Shown here: positions 5,485 to 47,517 of the stretch, one piece after another
Numbering within the stretch: the stretch's first letter is position 1
Layout: every line of letters begins with the position of its first letter
Source: a virus
Lineage: Duplodnaviria; Heunggongvirae; Uroviricota; Caudoviricetes
Length of the DNA: 64,000 bases
Virus record (IMG/VR): IMGVR_UViG_3300015615_000629
Location: 64,001 to 128,000 of that record
Strand: one strand, 5' to 3'
Notes under the pieces: model-generated
Seen by the model: only the letters and a program-made list of their open reading frames with translations
What the model was told of the DNA's origin: nothing
Databases searched by the model: none
Position numbers and translations under genes: made by a program

Positions 5485-5997
5485 TTAATTCATTTCTCCC
5501 CGTGCGTGCTCAAAAATGTTGGCGAATCGGCCCTCTACCTGCCCCTCTCTAGAAAACTCTACAAATGGCAAAAGTTTAGGTTTGCCCGCCGAACGGTCGA
5601 TCTCGGCAGAATGCATAAAATTTCCTAAAGTCTTATGTGAAAGCATTAAATTAACGATTTCTTTCCTCCCTGGTACAAATTCTAGACTCCCTTTGTATTG
5701 ATTGTTAAATATTTTTCTGCGTTCACCGATGTCAATGTCCTCTTCTGTTTCTGTCTTTTGTTCTACCATCCAACTTTCACATATGAAACCAATAGCAACA
5801 AGAGATTTATCGCGTCTTGCAATAAACCTCATAAATTCTACAAGGAGGTCTTTCGTTGCATGGTTTCGAGTAAACTGACCTGGAATAAGGCAAAAATTTA
5901 TCTTTTTGCCGTCAAAAGTCACAATCAATGGAGGAAGTTCCTCCCTGTCTTCAAAAATATTCTTGATAATACCAAGAATTTGTTGAACGAATTCCAT
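5485..5997 (-). CDS. Hypothetical protein
   Basis: 170 aa ORF, translationally coupled to its neighbour. Confidence 0.6.
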   Translation of the reverse strand: MEFVQQILGIIKNIFEDREELPPLIVTFDGKKINFCLIPGQFTRNHATKDLLVEFMRFIARRDKSLVAIGFICESWMVEQKTETEEDIDIGERRKIFNNQYKGSLEFVPGRKEIVNLMLSHKTLGNFMHSAEIDRSAGKPKLLPFVEFSREGQVEGRFANIFEHARGEMN

Positions 5998-6314
5998 TAC
6001 TTTCGTTTCCTTCTTAAAGTCAACAAAGAGGTATCCAACAGTTTCTTTTTCGAAGATTCCACTTTGGAATAATTGGATAAAGCCTGAAAAATCTGTTTAA
6101 TAGCACCCTCGCCAATCGATGGAATCTTAGCCAATTCATCCTGAGTATGATTTAGCAAGTCCTCAAGCGTGTTGATATTGTAAGATGCCAGGATATTCAC
6201 CGTTCTAACCGGCAATCCAGCAATCTCCAAATCCGATACAGTGTCTCCCCTATCAACCGCTACACATAAGATTTTCTTCGTTTCGTCAGATATCTTTGGA
6301 ACAATAAAGGACAT
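5997..6314 (-). CDS. Stand-alone RNA polymerase alpha C-terminal domain protein
   Basis: GLPVRTVNILASYNINTLEDLLNHTQDELAKIPSIGEGAIKQI matches the alpha-CTD HhH fold. Confidence 0.8.
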   Translation of the reverse strand: MSFIVPKISDETKKILCVAVDRGDTVSDLEIAGLPVRTVNILASYNINTLEDLLNHTQDELAKIPSIGEGAIKQIFQALSNYSKVESSKKKLLDTSLLTLRRKRK

Positions 6315-35583: not shown

Positions 35584-36495
35584 TTAAGAACTTGAGCACG
35601 TTATCTTCTTTTCGTATTCTCTCTTGGCGATGATAGCCTCTTCTTTAGTATCGAATCGTCCAAGGAACTTACGCTTCCAATGTGCCATCCACTTATTTCT
35701 CTCTTTATCAAAAGAGATATAAGTTTCACCCGATGTATTGCTACACGCTACAGTAAATTTTCTGCCGACATTGGACCTTTTACCACGCAAAATGTCGGAA
35801 ACAGAACTAATAGAGCATCCTAATTTGCCGGCAATTTGGCTTAAATTATTCCCTTCATCAAACATAAGTGGAATAGATTCGATTTGTTCCCGAGTGAGGA
35901 ACTTCGTTTTTGATTCTCTATATTTCAGTTTATAGGTGAAGCAATTAAATGCTATGTGCGGCTTAACCAATTCTATAAAGTCGAAGTAACAACAAGCACG
36001 CACGTTGATTACATTTTGATTGTCGAAATACGATTTTATCCCAAATGTCTCTAACTTGGCAACCAATATTTCGCAATCCTGTGCGGAGAAACAGTAAGTT
36101 GCGAGTTTACACGAACGATTATCTACACAGTTGCTGCCATCGTCACAATACCAAATAGCAATAGACAAAGGATCTAATTTTACATTTGGTGGAACGATTT
36201 TTGTTCCCGCAGGATACCACATTTTTCTCAAATCGGCGAAATAATGATAACTTTTAGTGGTAAATACAGACTTTAAGTATCTCTTACCTTCTGCGAAGTT
36301 TTCGTAAGTACGAACACTAGAAGAAAAAGGCTGTAATTCTGCGTGAGTCCACTCCAGATATTCTATCCGACGAGCCGTTTGCGACTTGCTAAAATACGAT
36401 TTACCATATCTTATCTTGCTGATACTGCCATCGCCTAAAAGTGAACCGATTATAATAGACTTTTGCTGTGTAGAAAGTAAAAGGTCGTTTATCAT
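35584..36495 (-). CDS. LAGLIDADG homing endonuclease with C-terminal HTH and AP2-like domain
   Basis: IIGSLLGDG, AIWYCDDGS, LSQIAGKLGCS, KWMA..FLGRFDTKEEA..A. Confidence 0.85.
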   Translation of the reverse strand: MINDLLLSTQQKSIIIGSLLGDGSISKIRYGKSYFSKSQTARRIEYLEWTHAELQPFSSSVRTYENFAEGKRYLKSVFTTKSYHYFADLRKMWYPAGTKIVPPNVKLDPLSIAIWYCDDGSNCVDNRSCKLATYCFSAQDCEILVAKLETFGIKSYFDNQNVINVRACCYFDFIELVKPHIAFNCFTYKLKYRESKTKFLTREQIESIPLMFDEGNNLSQIAGKLGCSISSVSDILRGKRSNVGRKFTVACSNTSGETYISFDKERNKWMAHWKRKFLGRFDTKEEAIIAKREYEKKITCSSS

Positions 36496-41308: not shown

Positions 41309-41704
41309 TCAGTTATCATCGTTTTTGGGTTGAACATTGATAATGGCAGGATTTAAAACGCCACCAGATTCATTTGCAATTTCGCCTTCATTATGAATCT
41401 GTGTGGCTAGATTGTGATATCTACGCAATTTTTCGCCATGCAACCAAACATGAGCAAGAATTTTCACGGCACAACCGTACATAAAACCGGTAATTCCTTC
41501 GTCATCGGCAGCACGGCCAGCGTTATCGATACATTGTTCTATGGTCTCGCCGGCATCAAGGGCTGCTTCCATTCTGGTTGCCCACTCGCTGCAAAAGCGA
41601 ATTACAGCATCGCCGTAAGGGTCTTGATTGTTTTCTACAGATTTTGCCCAATCGGCTTCGCCATTGGGTTCAACAAACTTCATCGCCGGGGAATGAACTT
41701 TCAT
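41309..41704 (-). CDS. Conserved hypothetical phage protein
   Basis: GITGFMYGCAV...W.HGE.LR..HN...GGVLNPA. Confidence 0.6.
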   Translation of the reverse strand: MKVHSPAMKFVEPNGEADWAKSVENNQDPYGDAVIRFCSEWATRMEAALDAGETIEQCIDNAGRAADDEGITGFMYGCAVKILAHVWLHGEKLRRYHNLATQIHNEGEIANESGGVLNPAIINVQPKNDDN

Positions 41705-41719: not shown

Positions 41720-41801
41720 TGGAAGCCGTGAGATTTGAACTCACATCTACAGAGATCGACTTGCGACTTACTCTGTTATCCTACCGTTGAACGAGGCTCC
41801 C
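41720..41801 (-). ncRNA. tRNA-like RNA with enlarged anticodon arm
   Basis: Acceptor GGGAGCC/GGCTTCC-A, D-loop AACGGT, T-arm GTGAG-TTCAAAT-CTCAC. The ACAGAG/CTCTGT stem closes 16 nt. Confidence 0.7.
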
Positions 41802-42002
41802 AACTAACGCCTTAATGTCGTAACCATTTTTACAATGAGTAAGTTTTTCGAAATCTATTTCAACTTCGAAATCTATTTCTAACTCATGTGCAATTTCTTC
41901 CCAATCAATAGTATCTACCCCAAAATCAGATAAATCACACGACAAATCCCGTACCGACCCCAATTGATCCCGAAGAATACCTAAAACTTTTTCATCCGTC
42001 AT
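41781..42002 (-). CDS. Acyl carrier protein-like (Thr at the phosphopantetheine Ser position)
   Basis: Acidic 73 aa; DFGVDTIDWEEIAHELEIDFEVEI versus canonical DLGADSLD..ELE..F.IEI. Confidence 0.65.
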   Translation of the reverse strand: MTDEKVLGILRDQLGSVRDLSCDLSDFGVDTIDWEEIAHELEIDFEVEIDFEKLTHCKNGYDIKALVGSLVQR

Positions 42003-42799: not shown

Positions 42800-44062
42800 T
42801 TAAGCCCTTTTGTAACGCTTTTTGAAGAAAGCCTTTGCCTCTTCCATATGAGAAAGTCGAGTCGCCCATGCTCTTTTCGCCACCATAACACACATCATGA
42901 ACATCTGACGACTTGGGAAATCTCCAACGCCTGTAACAACCCCATCAGATATCCAAAGCCTCGGATGCTGCTGCTTGGCTAACCATTTTAAAGCTGGGTA
43001 ATCCACGACATTGGAACCGCCAGTTGTGTTTCTCCAATTTTTAACACATCTGCCGTTCTTGGCGATAATTTGCAAGGTTCCTGACTTGGTTTGACCGCTA
43101 TAAGTTGCAATCGTACAACCAGGAGCCAAACGCAGAACTTCGGCAATATCGTAGGAACTTAAAGACATACTTCCACTTACGTCAACTAATACTGTGCCGC
43201 CCTGATGGCGTTTTTTATAGCCAAATATTTTTCCGTCTATGAAATATCTGTTTAAATAACGTGGCAATGTCCCTTCGTCGTTGGCACGCCATTTTCTAGA
43301 AAATTTAGAAGGCGGCATAGTCGCAGAAATATCTTTATGTAATTTAATTTTCATTTCCCCAGGTGGAGCATAACCTTTTCCACCATGTTTAAATTGCATT
43401 TTCATCTGCTCGTCTAAATAACTTGACCCCATTTTAGACTTTTCCGAAGGACTAAGCGGACATTTTCCCTCGCCTTTAATGGCATCTAAAAATTCTTCGT
43501 AAGACATTTCATAGAAGAACTCAACATCGCCAGTCTCATCCGGTTCTTCATCCGCAAAGCCGGAAGTACGAAGAAATAAATCTTCCTTCCGAAAAAATCC
43601 CAATGTCTTCGCACAATCAATCGATGTCTCAATTACTGGGTTTTCTGCAATCCTGTTCAATAAATGACGACCAGTGGCCTTGTACCCATCCACAAAACCA
43701 TAAATTACATCATTGAGAGAATCGTGCTTCGATGCAAGTAATTGCTTCCCTTTCTCGGTAATATCTTCAGTAGTTAAATTAATCCCTAATTTACGTAACT
43801 TGTACGTAATCCTGGCTTGTTCGCAAGCTAATAATGCCTGTGGATCAACGCCGTTGTCGGCGGCTAAATTCTGAATTTCTTCGGAATCATAACCCCAAAG
43901 CATGGAACCCATGACCAGCATCCGGCTGCGGAAAGCAGCCGGATGCGTACAAGCGGTTAATTTGCCATTCTTATAAAAATTCCTGTGTAGACCAGGAGAA
44001 TCGGCGGAAACAATCTCTAAATTCTCATCGGAAATTGCTTCAACTAAAGGATAAACCTTCAT
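42800..44062 (-). CDS. VWA (MIDAS) domain partner protein 1
   Basis: TVLVDVSGSMS (DxSxS), GGSNVVD, WISDG. Confidence 0.75.
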   Translation of the reverse strand: MKVYPLVEAISDENLEIVSADSPGLHRNFYKNGKLTACTHPAAFRSRMLVMGSMLWGYDSEEIQNLAADNGVDPQALLACEQARITYKLRKLGINLTTEDITEKGKQLLASKHDSLNDVIYGFVDGYKATGRHLLNRIAENPVIETSIDCAKTLGFFRKEDLFLRTSGFADEEPDETGDVEFFYEMSYEEFLDAIKGEGKCPLSPSEKSKMGSSYLDEQMKMQFKHGGKGYAPPGEMKIKLHKDISATMPPSKFSRKWRANDEGTLPRYLNRYFIDGKIFGYKKRHQGGTVLVDVSGSMSLSSYDIAEVLRLAPGCTIATYSGQTKSGTLQIIAKNGRCVKNWRNTTGGSNVVDYPALKWLAKQQHPRLWISDGVVTGVGDFPSRQMFMMCVMVAKRAWATRLSHMEEAKAFFKKRYKRA

Positions 44063-45292
44063 TTAAACTCTCTTGTATTTTCGAGTAAATTTCTTTTTCT
44101 TTTTGACCGGAGCAACTGCTTTTGGAGAGTAAATCGGCACACCAGCAGTGCTCAGTCGCAGACCCATACTTGTAATCTTTGCATGAACCTCTGCCAGGGC
44201 AGGTACATTGAAATTACGAATACAAAGAAGTTTCTCCGCAGTCCATCCAACTAAATGCCCAACAGTGGTAATGCCTTCGCCCTCTAGGCAATTGGTTGCT
44301 CTTACCGATAGTCCCAAGTCGGATATGCTGATATTTAATTTATCAGCAGTAGGTTTCTTCGCAGGCGTTTTTGACCGCCCGCCATCAATGGAAACTTTCG
44401 CTCCACATCTTTCCAATTCAGCCTTAATCCCATTGGCACGATCCTCAGAAATGTTTTCCACAAATCTGTTAGGGAGATTTTCAACCAAATCTTTGGTCTC
44501 TTTCAGCCCAAGACCAGTCATCGCCCGTACATACTTAATTACCTTTATCTTATCAGAACCAAAAGATTCCAAGATAACAGAAACAGATGCCGACCCTACA
44601 GAAACTTTGGCACCCCGCAATTTAAACGCCGCCATTACATCCTTATAGCCAGCACCAAAAATGGCTCGTGCTGCCATTTCATCCCCAACTTCCGGACGTA
44701 ATAAAGCAAATTCCTTCCAAGACCTTACAGAAATTCGCCTTTCTTCATCTTTAACCAAACCGGTTCTTTTCGCTAACTCCCGAATGTCATCAGGCAAAGC
44801 CTTCAAAGCACCTGGAGCAACCTCGTCCACATGAATCGTTACAGGAAACCTATCCCTTAATGCAGCGTTCAAATCACTAGGCTCGCCGTTCATTGTCGCT
44901 ACACAATGAAATCCAGGCAAAGGCTTAACCATTTCTCCGCTAGGTAAAGTAATATTGGCGATATCCATATCGTCCAATATGCCCAAGAGAAACGTCTGAG
45001 CGTCCCCAGAGGCTTTCTCCAACTCGTTCAACACAAGTCTAGTGCCTTTTCTCCAAGCGGAGACGCATGGACCGTCCATCCATACGTATTCCCCGCCCTT
45101 TAAACCAAAATGACCCCTTAATTCCGCAGCAGGGGTATCTTCCGTTAAAGAGAAAGAATATACATTATCATAAGCATCTGGTTTGATGCCAAAACGCTTG
45201 CCAGCATAACTCTTACCAGTACCAGATGGACCGTAAAGCAAAACGCGGTCAGTTTTAGTTAAAACTTTAGAAACTACATCCCAACAGCTCAT
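44063..45292 (-). CDS. MoxR/AAA_5 ATPase fused to ribosomal L7/L12 CTD and RNAP alpha-CTD
   Basis: GPSGTGKS, ATMN, ALRDRF; KIKVIKYVRAMTGLGLKETKDLVE...AELERCGAKV (L7/L12); DLGLSVRATNCLEGEGITTV (alpha-CTD). Confidence 0.85.
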   Translation of the reverse strand: MSCWDVVSKVLTKTDRVLLYGPSGTGKSYAGKRFGIKPDAYDNVYSFSLTEDTPAAELRGHFGLKGGEYVWMDGPCVSAWRKGTRLVLNELEKASGDAQTFLLGILDDMDIANITLPSGEMVKPLPGFHCVATMNGEPSDLNAALRDRFPVTIHVDEVAPGALKALPDDIRELAKRTGLVKDEERRISVRSWKEFALLRPEVGDEMAARAIFGAGYKDVMAAFKLRGAKVSVGSASVSVILESFGSDKIKVIKYVRAMTGLGLKETKDLVENLPNRFVENISEDRANGIKAELERCGAKVSIDGGRSKTPAKKPTADKLNISISDLGLSVRATNCLEGEGITTVGHLVGWTAEKLLCIRNFNVPALAEVHAKITSMGLRLSTAGVPIYSPKAVAPVKKKKKFTRKYKRV

Positions 45293-46662
45293 GCTGATTT
45301 TATCCTTTTGAAGAGATTAAAAGCTTCTTTTACGTAAGGAACGCGAATAATACTGTTTCTTTTAACGACATCGAAACACATCATGGTCAACAATGGAAAA
45401 GCACTATCGCCAACTCCTGTGACAATTCCATCCGATACCCATATTCTAGGGCCGGGCATTTTAGACAACCATATGAGAGCGGGATAATCCACTATATTGC
45501 CGCCTTGTTTATAACTTAATTTGGAAGAATACGTTCCATTCTCTGCTAATATCGACAACCTTCCGCTTGACGATTCACCAGAATAGGCCGCCACCGTGCA
45601 GCCAGGAGCAGATTCAGTTATCTTTATTATTTCATCTATCGACAAACCCATACTGCTACTGGTGTCGATTAATACCGTTCCGCCCTGTGCCTTTCTTTTA
45701 ACACCAAAAATCTTACCATCAACAAAGTATCTGTTTAAATATCTCGGATGAGTACCTTCTTCGGCACTTGCCCATTTTTTAGCCTTTTGACCATTTAAAC
45801 GCCTATCCATAGTTTCTTTGCAGATAGACATATTTCCATATGAAAATCCTCCATGATGTACTTTTGACCCCTTATATTGTCCCTCAAAATGATTGCCGTA
45901 GCGGCTGCTATTTAATTCAGCCATCCCCTTCTCAAACGCTTCTTTTTCGTGAGAATTTGAGAATTTAGAATTGTTTTTCAAAAACTCTTCAAAATTGCTG
46001 GTTTCTTCAAGTTCGTCTTTAACTCTTTCCAAAATATCGTGATCTTCCGCCATAGAAGAAGCATCCTTTGCTCCCGTGCAAGTTCCAGCCGGCCGCTTAG
46101 ACGGCTTACCACCACTATCACTACGATCAGAAGATGGCTTGCCCTTCGCTTCCGAGGATTCACCCGGCTTCGGCGTAGACGGATGCTTTATTATTTCTTG
46201 AACATATCTACAAGCCTCTAACAAACAATCTACATTTCCAGACGCCGCAGAAACCATCTCTTTAAATTTAGTAACTACCGGTTCTGTGCTTTCGGCTTCA
46301 AACGCAGAGGAAATAGCAGTTATTAATGGGTTATCGTCAAAACGTCTTGTGGCAGGACATAATTCTATTTCTGTCCTTTTCAAATGATAACCAATTCTAC
46401 CAATCTCACACGCTTCTAAAATTAAAGGATTTAGGGAAAAATTGGTCGCCATATTACGGATTTCTTCATCGGATAATCCCCACTTTATCCGACCTAACGC
46501 AATTATGCGGTTTCGGCGAGCCGATTCCTTCAAATCAAGATTTAAAACCTTCTTCTCAAAATCTAAACTTTCCTTCCAGGGCGTATGATTGATTTCCCAG
46601 CCCTGTCCAAGCAGACCTTCAAACGATTCCACCAATGGGAATATCTTATCGTGCCTCAACAT
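45289..46662 (-). CDS. VWA (MIDAS) domain partner protein 2
   Basis: TVLIDTSSSMG, GGNIVDYPAL, WVSDG. Paralogue of 42800-44062. Confidence 0.75.
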   Translation of the reverse strand: MLRHDKIFPLVESFEGLLGQGWEINHTPWKESLDFEKKVLNLDLKESARRNRIIALGRIKWGLSDEEIRNMATNFSLNPLILEACEIGRIGYHLKRTEIELCPATRRFDDNPLITAISSAFEAESTEPVVTKFKEMVSAASGNVDCLLEACRYVQEIIKHPSTPKPGESSEAKGKPSSDRSDSGGKPSKRPAGTCTGAKDASSMAEDHDILERVKDELEETSNFEEFLKNNSKFSNSHEKEAFEKGMAELNSSRYGNHFEGQYKGSKVHHGGFSYGNMSICKETMDRRLNGQKAKKWASAEEGTHPRYLNRYFVDGKIFGVKRKAQGGTVLIDTSSSMGLSIDEIIKITESAPGCTVAAYSGESSSGRLSILAENGTYSSKLSYKQGGNIVDYPALIWLSKMPGPRIWVSDGIVTGVGDSAFPLLTMMCFDVVKRNSIIRVPYVKEAFNLFKRIKSA

Positions 46663-46710
46663 GCGGGTTCTCCGTAGGTCAGCACTAAAAATGCAGTAAA
46701 AAACCAGAAT

Positions 46711-47517
46711 TTAAGATTTAGAGATATTAAGTGCTGCCAATACTTCCGAATAACGGCTTCCAAAAACCGCTTTGGCAGCAAGAGTAGGATTATGTTCTTC
46801 TCTCAATCGAGCAAATTCATTCCAAGAACGAACGGAAATTCTCCGCTGAGCGTCTTTAACAACGCTACAATTATAAACCACATTTCTAATATCTTCCGGT
46901 AACGCCAACAGTGCGTCCGGAGCAATCCTATCAATATTAATCGCTATCGGAAAACGATCCCTTAATGCCGGATTCAAATCCACATCAGGATCGCCATTCA
47001 TTGTTGCAACACACCTAAAACCAGAATCTGGTCTTACCGTTTCACCAGTTGGCAACGTAATACTAGCAATTCCTGGATCGTCTAGAATCCCTAATAGAAA
47101 TGTCTGAGCATCCCCAGAAGCCTTTTCTAATTCATTTAATACTAATCTGGCTCCCTTACGCCAAGAGGATACGCAAGGACCGTCCATCCATACGTATTCT
47201 CCACTTTTAAGGCCGAAATGACCTCTTAACTCAGCCGCTGGAGTATCTTCGGTTAAAGAGAAAGAAAACACCCGTTCATTAAAATTGATCTTCTCACATA
47301 GTCGCCGTTCGGCCGCTATCCAAAATTCCCTATCTTGACCATCGGGGCAACCACGTTCGGCCCAGATGAGTTTTGCTTCGGCAGCAATTTGCTCCTTAGA
47401 TGGAGCAATTCCTAACCGTTTTCCAGCATAACTTTTGCCCGTTCCTGAAGGACCATAGAGCAAAATGCGGTCAGCAGACGGCAACACCTGTTCAACTATC
47501 GACCAGCAGTCTTCCAT
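46711..47517 (-). CDS. MoxR/AAA_5 ATPase with inserted DUF2934-like domain
   Basis: GPSGTGKS followed by EQIAAEAKLIWAERGCPDGQDREFWIAAERRL. Paralogue of 44063-45292. Confidence 0.8.
   Translation of the reverse strand: MEDCWSIVEQVLPSADRILLYGPSGTGKSYAGKRLGIAPSKEQIAAEAKLIWAERGCPDGQDREFWIAAERRLCEKINFNERVFSFSLTEDTPAAELRGHFGLKSGEYVWMDGPCVSSWRKGARLVLNELEKASGDAQTFLLGILDDPGIASITLPTGETVRPDSGFRCVATMNGDPDVDLNPALRDRFPIAINIDRIAPDALLALPEDIRNVVYNCSVVKDAQRRISVRSWNEFARLREEHNPTLAAKAVFGSRYSEVLAALNISKS

Follow-up and report, generated by a model that had tools for sequence, protein, structure and literature searches.

Motors composed of a MoxR-class ATPase and a partner protein with a VWA domain are common, while their clients are mostly unknown. 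In the NorQD complex, the VWA domain of NorD occupies the opening on the C-terminal side of the NorQ ring and inserts a finger into the pore, and the ring remodels the linker of NorD (Kahle et al. 2026, PMC13036017; structures 9qh4-9qhg). Jumbo phages of group 2.2 encode a MoxR ATPase together with a vWA protein carrying an N-terminal metallopeptidase (e.g. ASV44729.1 and ASV44728.2), and a role in virion assembly has been proposed for this pair (Iyer et al. 2021, Viruses 13:63, PMC7824862). In other phages, bL12 domains are embedded in larger proteins, where they keep the residues contacting EF-G and EF-Tu and were suggested to serve as translation-factor interfaces (Mizuno et al. 2019, Nat Commun 10:752, PMC6375957). 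Here, we analysed a stretch of 64,000 nucleotides (hereafter the window) from the IMG/VR virus record IMGVR_UViG_3300015615_000629, a complete virus genome of 572,167 bp flanked by direct terminal repeats, of which the window covers bases 64001-128000. Four consecutive genes in the window encode two ATPase-partner pairs in tandem, and one of the two ATPases is fused to the C-terminal domains (CTDs) of ribosomal protein bL12 and of the alpha subunit of RNA polymerase (RNAP).

An initial annotation, made from the letters alone, had described the order AAA-VWA-AAA-VWA, which is indeed what the four minus-strand open reading frames (ORFs) between 47517 and 42800 encode:

46711-47517, minus strand: P0001, 268 amino acids, MoxR-class AAA_5 ATPase
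45289-46662, minus strand: P0002, 457 amino acids, partner 1, with a probably zincin-like domain at the N-terminus that lacks HExxH, a linker, and a VWA domain at the C-terminus
44063-45292, minus strand: P0003, 409 amino acids, ATPase with bL12 CTD, alpha-CTD and basic tail
42800-44062, minus strand: P0004, 420 amino acids, partner 2, with an N-terminal domain and a C-terminal VWA domain

P0001 and P0002 are separated by 48 nt, with GGAG in front of the ATG, P0002 and P0003 overlap by 4 nt, and P0004 follows P0003 with no gap (0 nt), so that P0001-P0004 look translationally coupled as a four-gene operon. Promoter-like and terminator-like sites were found in numbers equal to the shuffled expectation and thus do not allow operon boundaries to be claimed. 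A blastn search with the 4.7-kb region gave no match among 50,697 phage records.

Both ATPases match the Pfam family AAA_5 far above its cut-off of 22 bits (P0001 64.8 bits, P0003 64.5 bits, E 1e-17), and the nearest solved relatives of the P0003 core among PDB sequence matches are midasin (1.5e-26), NorQ (5e-13) and CbbQ (7e-5), in agreement with the MoxR class assigned earlier. The peptides that had been quoted as a sign of closely similar AAA cores are found in both proteins, the cores of which share 60% identity (BLASTP, E 1e-108). The ATPases of the window group as sisters in a maximum-likelihood tree built from 43 family members (support 98/92), and a scan of the complete genome revealed no ATPase or partner copies beyond the two pairs. 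The tandem pairs represent an old duplication inside this phage lineage. The Walker A motif is GPSGTGKS in both ATPases, with K27 invariant in the 43 sequences. The Walker B motif is LVLNE in both, as already noticed in the initial annotation: Asn89 replaces the Asp of the canonical hhhhDE, which is found in neither protein, while Glu90, the catalytic residue, is unchanged. In the match to midasin, Asn89 falls on the Walker B Asp of the fourth matched AAA domain. Since Asn89 and Glu90 are invariant in all 43 aligned family members, and the Asn-Glu motif occurs in 64 of 75 viral homologues, we regard it as a family trait and not as decay in this phage; the invariance argues for function, and P0001 and P0003 are predicted to be ATPases.

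The second ATPase, P0003, is composed of the following parts:

44618..45292, minus strand: AAA_5 core with helical lid, residues 1-225
44387..44581, minus strand: bL12 (L7/L12) CTD, residues 238-302
44174..44353, minus strand: RNAP alpha-CTD, residues ~315-373
44066..44152, minus strand: Lys/Arg-rich tail, residues 381-409, from the translation

A short Gly/Ser/Val linker connects the lid domain to the bL12 CTD, and a Lys/Pro-rich linker connects the latter to the alpha-CTD. That one ATPase carries these two domains in this order had been proposed from the translation, and both Pfam profiles match (PF00542, E 8.7e-24; PF03118, E 1.8e-15), with 87.3 and 60.4 bits, respectively, in a profile scan of the phage's own genome. 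In alignment with E. coli L7/L12 (1CTF), the bL12 CTD keeps K65, I69, K70, R73, L80 and E82, while V66 is changed to Ile; these seven positions are known as the bL12 surface that binds IF2, EF-Tu, EF-G and RF3. The profile of full-length bL12, TIGR00855, reaches 72.4 bits, below its cut-off of 84.4, and covers only profile positions 50-124 of 125. P0003 is devoid of the N-terminal dimerisation and uL10-binding domain of bL12 and therefore cannot sit on uL10 as bL12 does; it carries no more than the CTD and is not a ribosomal protein. With 45-59% identity to bL12 from many phyla, the CTD carries no phylum signal, and neither a donor nor a host can thus be named from it. The initial annotation had called the added domains host-derived, a statement that these identities do not bear out. 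Neither a translational GTPase nor an RNAP beta subunit was found in the phage's own genome, and any canonical ligand would therefore be a host protein.

The alpha-CTD of P0003 is less well conserved, with 35% identity to residues 245-319 of E. coli alpha. In E. coli numbering, R265, N268 and C269 are kept, whereas E261 is changed to Gly, G296 to Asn, K297 to Val, K298 to Pro and S299 to Ala, so that half of the '265 determinant' (R265, N268, C269, G296, K298 and S299) is replaced. With 56 bits, the rpoA profile TIGR02027 stays below its cut-off of 227.8, and it matches at its C-terminal positions only; P0003 has no N-terminal domain of alpha. The genome encodes a second domain of this kind in a stand-alone alpha-CTD-like protein of 105 amino acids at 5997-6314 on the minus strand (PF03118, 38.5 bits, above the cut-off), in which the hairpin Gly looks intact and which also has a basic tail.

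The other ATPase has acquired a different addition:

47302..47394, minus strand: DUF2934 of P0001, residues 42-72

The helical insert of P0001 spans 39 residues between the Walker A helix and the following strand. It had been described as DUF2934-like and turned out to be a genuine DUF2934 by Pfam (PF11154, E 1.2e-8, 34.9 bits, cut-off 22). At least eight homologues also have a DUF2934, which in their case lies in an N-terminal extension; the literature mentioning the domain gives no function for it.

The partner proteins P0002 and P0004 have no family in Pfam, NCBIfam or PADLOC, and PHROGs places both in phrog_33218, a family of unknown function. They share 45% identity in the final 200 residues and 32% in the first 100. 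In the initial annotation, they were described as VWA proteins, which overlooked an N-terminal domain with a lost HExxH motif. For P0004, the two domains are:

42803..43378, minus strand: VWA domain, residues ~229-420, from the metal-ion-dependent adhesion site (MIDAS) and the model
43727..44062, minus strand: N-terminal domain, residues 1-112, counterpart of the HExxH domain of homologues

As to the VWA domain, the fold and its signature motif stand, while a Pfam match is missing. The MIDAS motif DxSxS is invariant in an alignment of P0002, P0004 and 42 metagenomic homologues (44 sequences), being D294-x-S296-x-S298 in P0004 and DTSSS in P0002. The predicted local distance difference test score (pLDDT) of the AlphaFold model of P0004 is mostly above 90 at residues 230-420. 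The top Foldseek match of this model is the NorD VWA domain (9qh6_G, E 8e-5), the first 18 rows and most of the others being VWA or I-domains, and VIA-align likewise ranks NorD at the top (Z 9.4, root-mean-square deviation 3.7, 149 residues), with VWA or I-domains in all listed rows. In the Atlas, the partner has CobT_C and NorD-like proteins among its structural neighbours, and viral members make up 89-100% of its sequence clusters. Only 2 of the 44 sequences touch a Pfam VWA profile (VWA_CoxE, E 0.04), P0002 and P0004 matching none; the partner family is too diverged for VWA profiles.

The N-terminal domain of about 110 residues contains a block in which most homologues have HExxH (59 of the 81 viral partners) and which continues with an invariant Glu (E81) and an invariant Arg (R84). 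In P0002, P0004 and a minority of relatives, both the His and the Glu residues of HExxH are lost; the window partners have hydrophobic residues or Gly at these positions, while E81 and R84 are kept in P0004. The model of this domain has a pLDDT above 80 at residues 40-110, and its weak structural neighbours (Z 3.1-4.0) are mostly minimal zincins, namely SPRTN, ZMPSTE24, jannalysin, PprI/IrrE, Wss1 and ArdC; Foldseek returned no match for the same model. From the motif of the homologues together with these weak fold matches, a zincin fold is likely, though not proven. The interdomain residues 112-212 are modelled with low confidence, and the counterpart in P0002 is rich in Ser, Lys and Gly. A complex prediction with three P0003 cores and the VWA domain of P0004 scored 0.05 and is evidence neither for nor against docking.

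How common is such a pair? Relatives of the partner are encoded in 171 stretches of IMG/VR. In 75 of the best 80 loci, the gene immediately upstream is that of the ATPase, mostly with overlapping stop and start codons. The ATPase-partner pair is a conserved, phage-typical unit, and the general pairing of MoxR ATPases with VWA proteins, from which the initial annotation had started, holds in the window as well as in these 75 loci. Homologues of the ATPase core, with a length of about 240 amino acids and 50-64% identity, number in the hundreds. As many of the module-bearing contigs measure 40-54 kb, the module is no speciality of giant phages. An exonuclease gene is located just downstream in four of eight inspected loci, and the next gene encodes a single-strand-annealing protein (SSAP) in all three loci scanned for it. 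In the phage contigs L063, L081, L059 and L036 (~40-50 kb), an exonuclease (phrog_284) and an SSAP (phrog_3290) come after the module; such neighbours point to an early or DNA-metabolism setting away from morphogenesis. A tblastn search with P0004 gave no match in the 50,697 phage records, so that sightings of the partner are confined to metagenomic viruses and phrog_33218, and the partner profile did not match Agrobacterium phage Atu_ph07. A few relatives occur in planctomycete-type bacterial contigs. In one of these (L003; ENA, 254 kb, with PSCyt2 and DUF1501), an ATPase homologue with 59% identity (P0028) is followed by three unannotated genes for 330, 127 and 430 amino acids in place of the usual single partner. 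Another large phage, on a contig of 115 kb, carries two tandem partner genes, one with and one without HExxH and with no ATPase gene between them (L071:232-2743, plus strand); this locus starts at the contig end, where an upstream ATPase gene may be cut off.

Among the 120 best-listed of 464 family homologues, P0003 alone has the bL12/alpha-CTD fusion, and none of the 75 viral loci has a bL12 or alpha-CTD segment. A search with residues 225-409 of P0003 against 1.84 billion representative proteins yielded 9,561 matches. Besides P0003 itself, the 149 best matches comprise 119 proteins with bL12 CTDs and 30 with alpha-CTDs; none of the 149 has both, and none has an AAA domain beside either of them. 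The uniqueness of the double-domain protein thus holds among the best 149 of 9,561 matches, and a diverged case may score lower. The initial annotation had spoken of swappable adaptor domains. This applies to DUF2934 and to unnamed N-terminal extensions, which recur in the family, but not to the bL12/alpha-CTD fusion, which was encountered only once.

The same search uncovered a use of the two domains outside their textbook context. All 119 bL12-CTD proteins carry two to seven tandem copies in a non-ribosomal context; a metagenomic protein (P0171) has its array fused to a TIR domain, other arrays are fused to LRV repeats, and P0165, encoded on a bacterial genome contig, contains seven bL12 CTDs. 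The alpha-CTD arrays consist of 2-11 copies and co-occur with other helix-hairpin-helix (HhH) DNA-binding families. These array-bearing proteins (P0165-P0313; loci L095 and L096) are of metagenomic and bacterial origin, and we found no paper on non-ribosomal arrays of bL12 CTDs or alpha-CTDs.

What might a phage gain from a duplicated motor with such additions? We suggest, giving the idea an even chance, that the module is a NorQD-like motor which was duplicated in this lineage and whose two ATPases gained different added domains, those of P0003 probably directing it at host factors. The ATPase would form a ring of the NorQ/CbbQ/CobS type, presumably a hexamer, on the C-terminal face of which the VWA domain of the partner would dock by analogy to NorQ and NorD. 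By pulling on the disordered linker of its partner, the ring could remodel whatever is held by the partner's N-terminal domain. In homologues bearing HExxH, this domain might act as an ATP-controlled protease; in P0002 and P0004, it would be protease-dead and, since HExxH is lost in both, could only bind. After the duplication, P0001 gained DUF2934, and P0003 gained, on a flexible linker at its C-terminus, the bL12 CTD, the alpha-CTD and the basic tail. The arms of P0003 are predicted to hang from the C-terminus of the lid, which in NorQD is the face where the VWA domain docks, and a hexamer would display six of them in a manner resembling the ribosomal stalk. Host EF-G, EF-Tu, IF2 and RF3, and possibly ligands of the alpha-CTD or nucleic acid, would most probably be tethered to the motor in this way or sequestered during takeover. 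While the order of the genes, their domains, the state of the motifs, the distribution of the family and the duplication are read from the sequences, we infer the hexamer, the docking, the pulling of the linker and the identity of the targets from these relatives and from the added domains; the fusion as such suggests an action on host translation or transcription factors. A more specific version appears rather unlikely: the P0003 hexamer would be an ATP-driven stalk mimic whose six tethered bL12 CTDs draw host translational GTPases off the ribosomes and whose alpha-CTDs capture regulators of RNAP such as NusA or activators; the protease-dead VWA partner would pass these on to the motor for remodelling or sequestration, so that translation and transcription are hit together.

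Several observations weigh against the overall reading. The alpha-CTD has retained only half of its UP-element and DNA-binding determinant and has lost the sigma contact E261. The Asp-to-Asn exchange in Walker B could weaken the handling of Mg-ATP, and the zincin-like fold of the N-terminal domain is weakly backed, with Z scores of at most 4.0. Moreover, the fusion is a lone case without orthologues in which purifying selection would show. Finally, both domains are widely reused outside the ribosome and RNAP, which weakens the assumption of canonical ligands; the bL12 CTD and the alpha-CTD may be generic modules with altered specificity.

The window has 11 tRNA genes, a high gene density and a dominant minus strand, and the operon lies among replication-type genes and small, unannotated genes of early type. 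At 41309-41704 on the minus strand, i.e. on the same strand as the operon and 1.1 kb downstream of it, an ORF of 131 amino acids encodes a homologue of the Type I Thoeris inhibitor Tad4 (Pfam E 1.6e-25, 90 bits, cut-off 25). An ORF of 73 amino acids at 41781-42002 (minus strand) weakly matches the acyl-carrier-protein family phrog_5934 (E 7e-5), and in one of 303 amino acids at 35584-36495 (minus strand), a LAGLIDADG homing-endonuclease region (phrog_11023, E 2e-23) is joined to an HNH region at the C-terminus (phrog_99, E 6e-9).

Other explanations can be put forward for the operon. As part of an anti-defence or decoy strategy, the bL12 CTD and the alpha-CTD could imitate host parts to which a defence sensor or toxin responds, or titrate this sensor or toxin, which the motor would then inactivate. 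The closeness of the Tad4 homologue on the same strand, the early-type character of the small unannotated genes nearby and the TIR fusion of a bL12-CTD array in P0171, an architecture of the conflict type, would fit this idea. We know of no defence system that targets bL12 or the alpha-CTD, however, and none of the four proteins matches PADLOC at E 0.01. The core module is, moreover, widespread without any added domains in ordinary phages beside recombination genes, and its basic role is therefore independent of a decoy function, which we consider unlikely. Alternatively, the HhH-type alpha-CTD and the Lys-rich tail could anchor a replication or recombination remodeller to DNA or RNA, with a partner domain related to the DNA-associated proteases of the SprT/Wss1/IrrE type. 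Such a tether would agree with the exonuclease and SSAP genes directly downstream of the module in several phages, with SPRTN, PprI/IrrE, Wss1 and ArdC leading the weak neighbours of the N-terminal domain, with the basic tail of P0003 and with the company of other HhH DNA-binding families in which alpha-CTD arrays are found. It leaves the well-kept bL12 CTD unexplained, though, and relies on structural matches with Z scores not above 4.0, which Foldseek did not reproduce, and on an alpha-CTD without G296, K298 and S299; we thus regard it as quite unlikely.

A third possibility, that the pair is a chaperone of virion assembly, has a precedent in the MoxR-vWA system that is reported to build the tails of Acidianus two-tailed virus. 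The published proposal for the jumbo-phage pair concerns an identical family architecture, in which the ATPase precedes a protein that has both HExxH and VWA domains (PMC7824862). However, the pair is placed beside exonuclease and SSAP genes and not beside morphogenesis genes in contigs of 40-50 kb, and its neighbours in the window are replication-type and small early-type genes. The peptidase motif, invoked for the processing of structural proteins, is absent from both window partners, and neither the bL12 CTD nor the alpha-CTD has an obvious role in assembly, so we find such a function here very doubtful. Finally, the annotations of cultured phages would suggest an auxiliary of metal chelation or cofactor insertion of the CobS/CobT type: the closest cultured-phage matches of the ATPase are cyanophage proteins named 'CobS' (~30% identity), PHROGs reports phrog_249 'porphyrin biosynthesis', and CobT_C is among the structural neighbours of the partner. 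However, the ATPase shares little identity with CobS and none outside the AAA core, and the partner differs from CobT by an N-terminal domain with a peptidase-type motif in its homologues. Neither CobN (PF02514) nor the H subunit of Mg-chelatase is present in the complete phage genome, while control genomes do match PF02514. CobS-like chelatase subunits were hence rejected, this explanation being nearly excluded by the lack of CobN.

The motor directed at host factors remains our preferred interpretation; the initial annotation, which had proposed a similar aim, is confirmed in its observation, with corrections, and supported in part in its reading. New at this locus are the tandem duplication and the different domains gained by its two copies, the missing peptidase motif and the fusion of bL12 CTD and alpha-CTD, while the module itself was known. 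The phage pair is abundant without having a curated family, and the known ligands of both added domains, translational GTPases and RNAP regulators, provide a concrete handle on a client of the motor. Binding of EF-G, EF-Tu, IF2 or RF3 by the bL12 arm, if it occurs, would give viruses a new route to the takeover of translation, different from the known replacement of ribosomal proteins. Irrespective of this, the family-wide Asn-Glu Walker B motif, the fact that the peptidase motif was lost repeatedly, and the widespread non-ribosomal bL12-CTD arrays, including the TIR fusion, are useful in their own right.

How does the locus compare with the systems described before? The published jumbo-phage pair (PMC7824862), which the initial annotation had missed, shares the layout in which a small MoxR ATPase precedes a protein that begins with an HExxH domain and ends with a vWA domain, as far as a comparison by description allows. 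In contrast to that pair, the module is duplicated in tandem here, HExxH is lost in both partners, DUF2934 or the bL12 CTD and alpha-CTD have been added, and the setting is non-morphogenetic. With NorQ-NorD, as well as CbbQ-CbbO and CobS-CobT, the phage pair has in common the AAA_5 ATPase, a NorD-like VWA domain and a flexible linker in the partner. It differs from them in being phage-encoded, in a genome without a metal-enzyme client or CobN, in its Asn-Glu Walker B, where the NorQ type has Asp-Glu, and in a probably zincin-like N-terminal domain of the partner that is unlike that of NorD or CobT. Like the bL12 proteins reported from other phages (PMC6375957), P0003 embeds a bL12 CTD with its contact residues in a non-ribosomal protein; those proteins, however, stem from phages below 80 kb and have other backgrounds, and no fusion to a MoxR ATPase or an alpha-CTD was reported for them. 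The non-ribosomal arrays, in turn, are built from the same two Pfam domains, but while each array repeats one kind, P0003 joins both on a single predicted ATPase.

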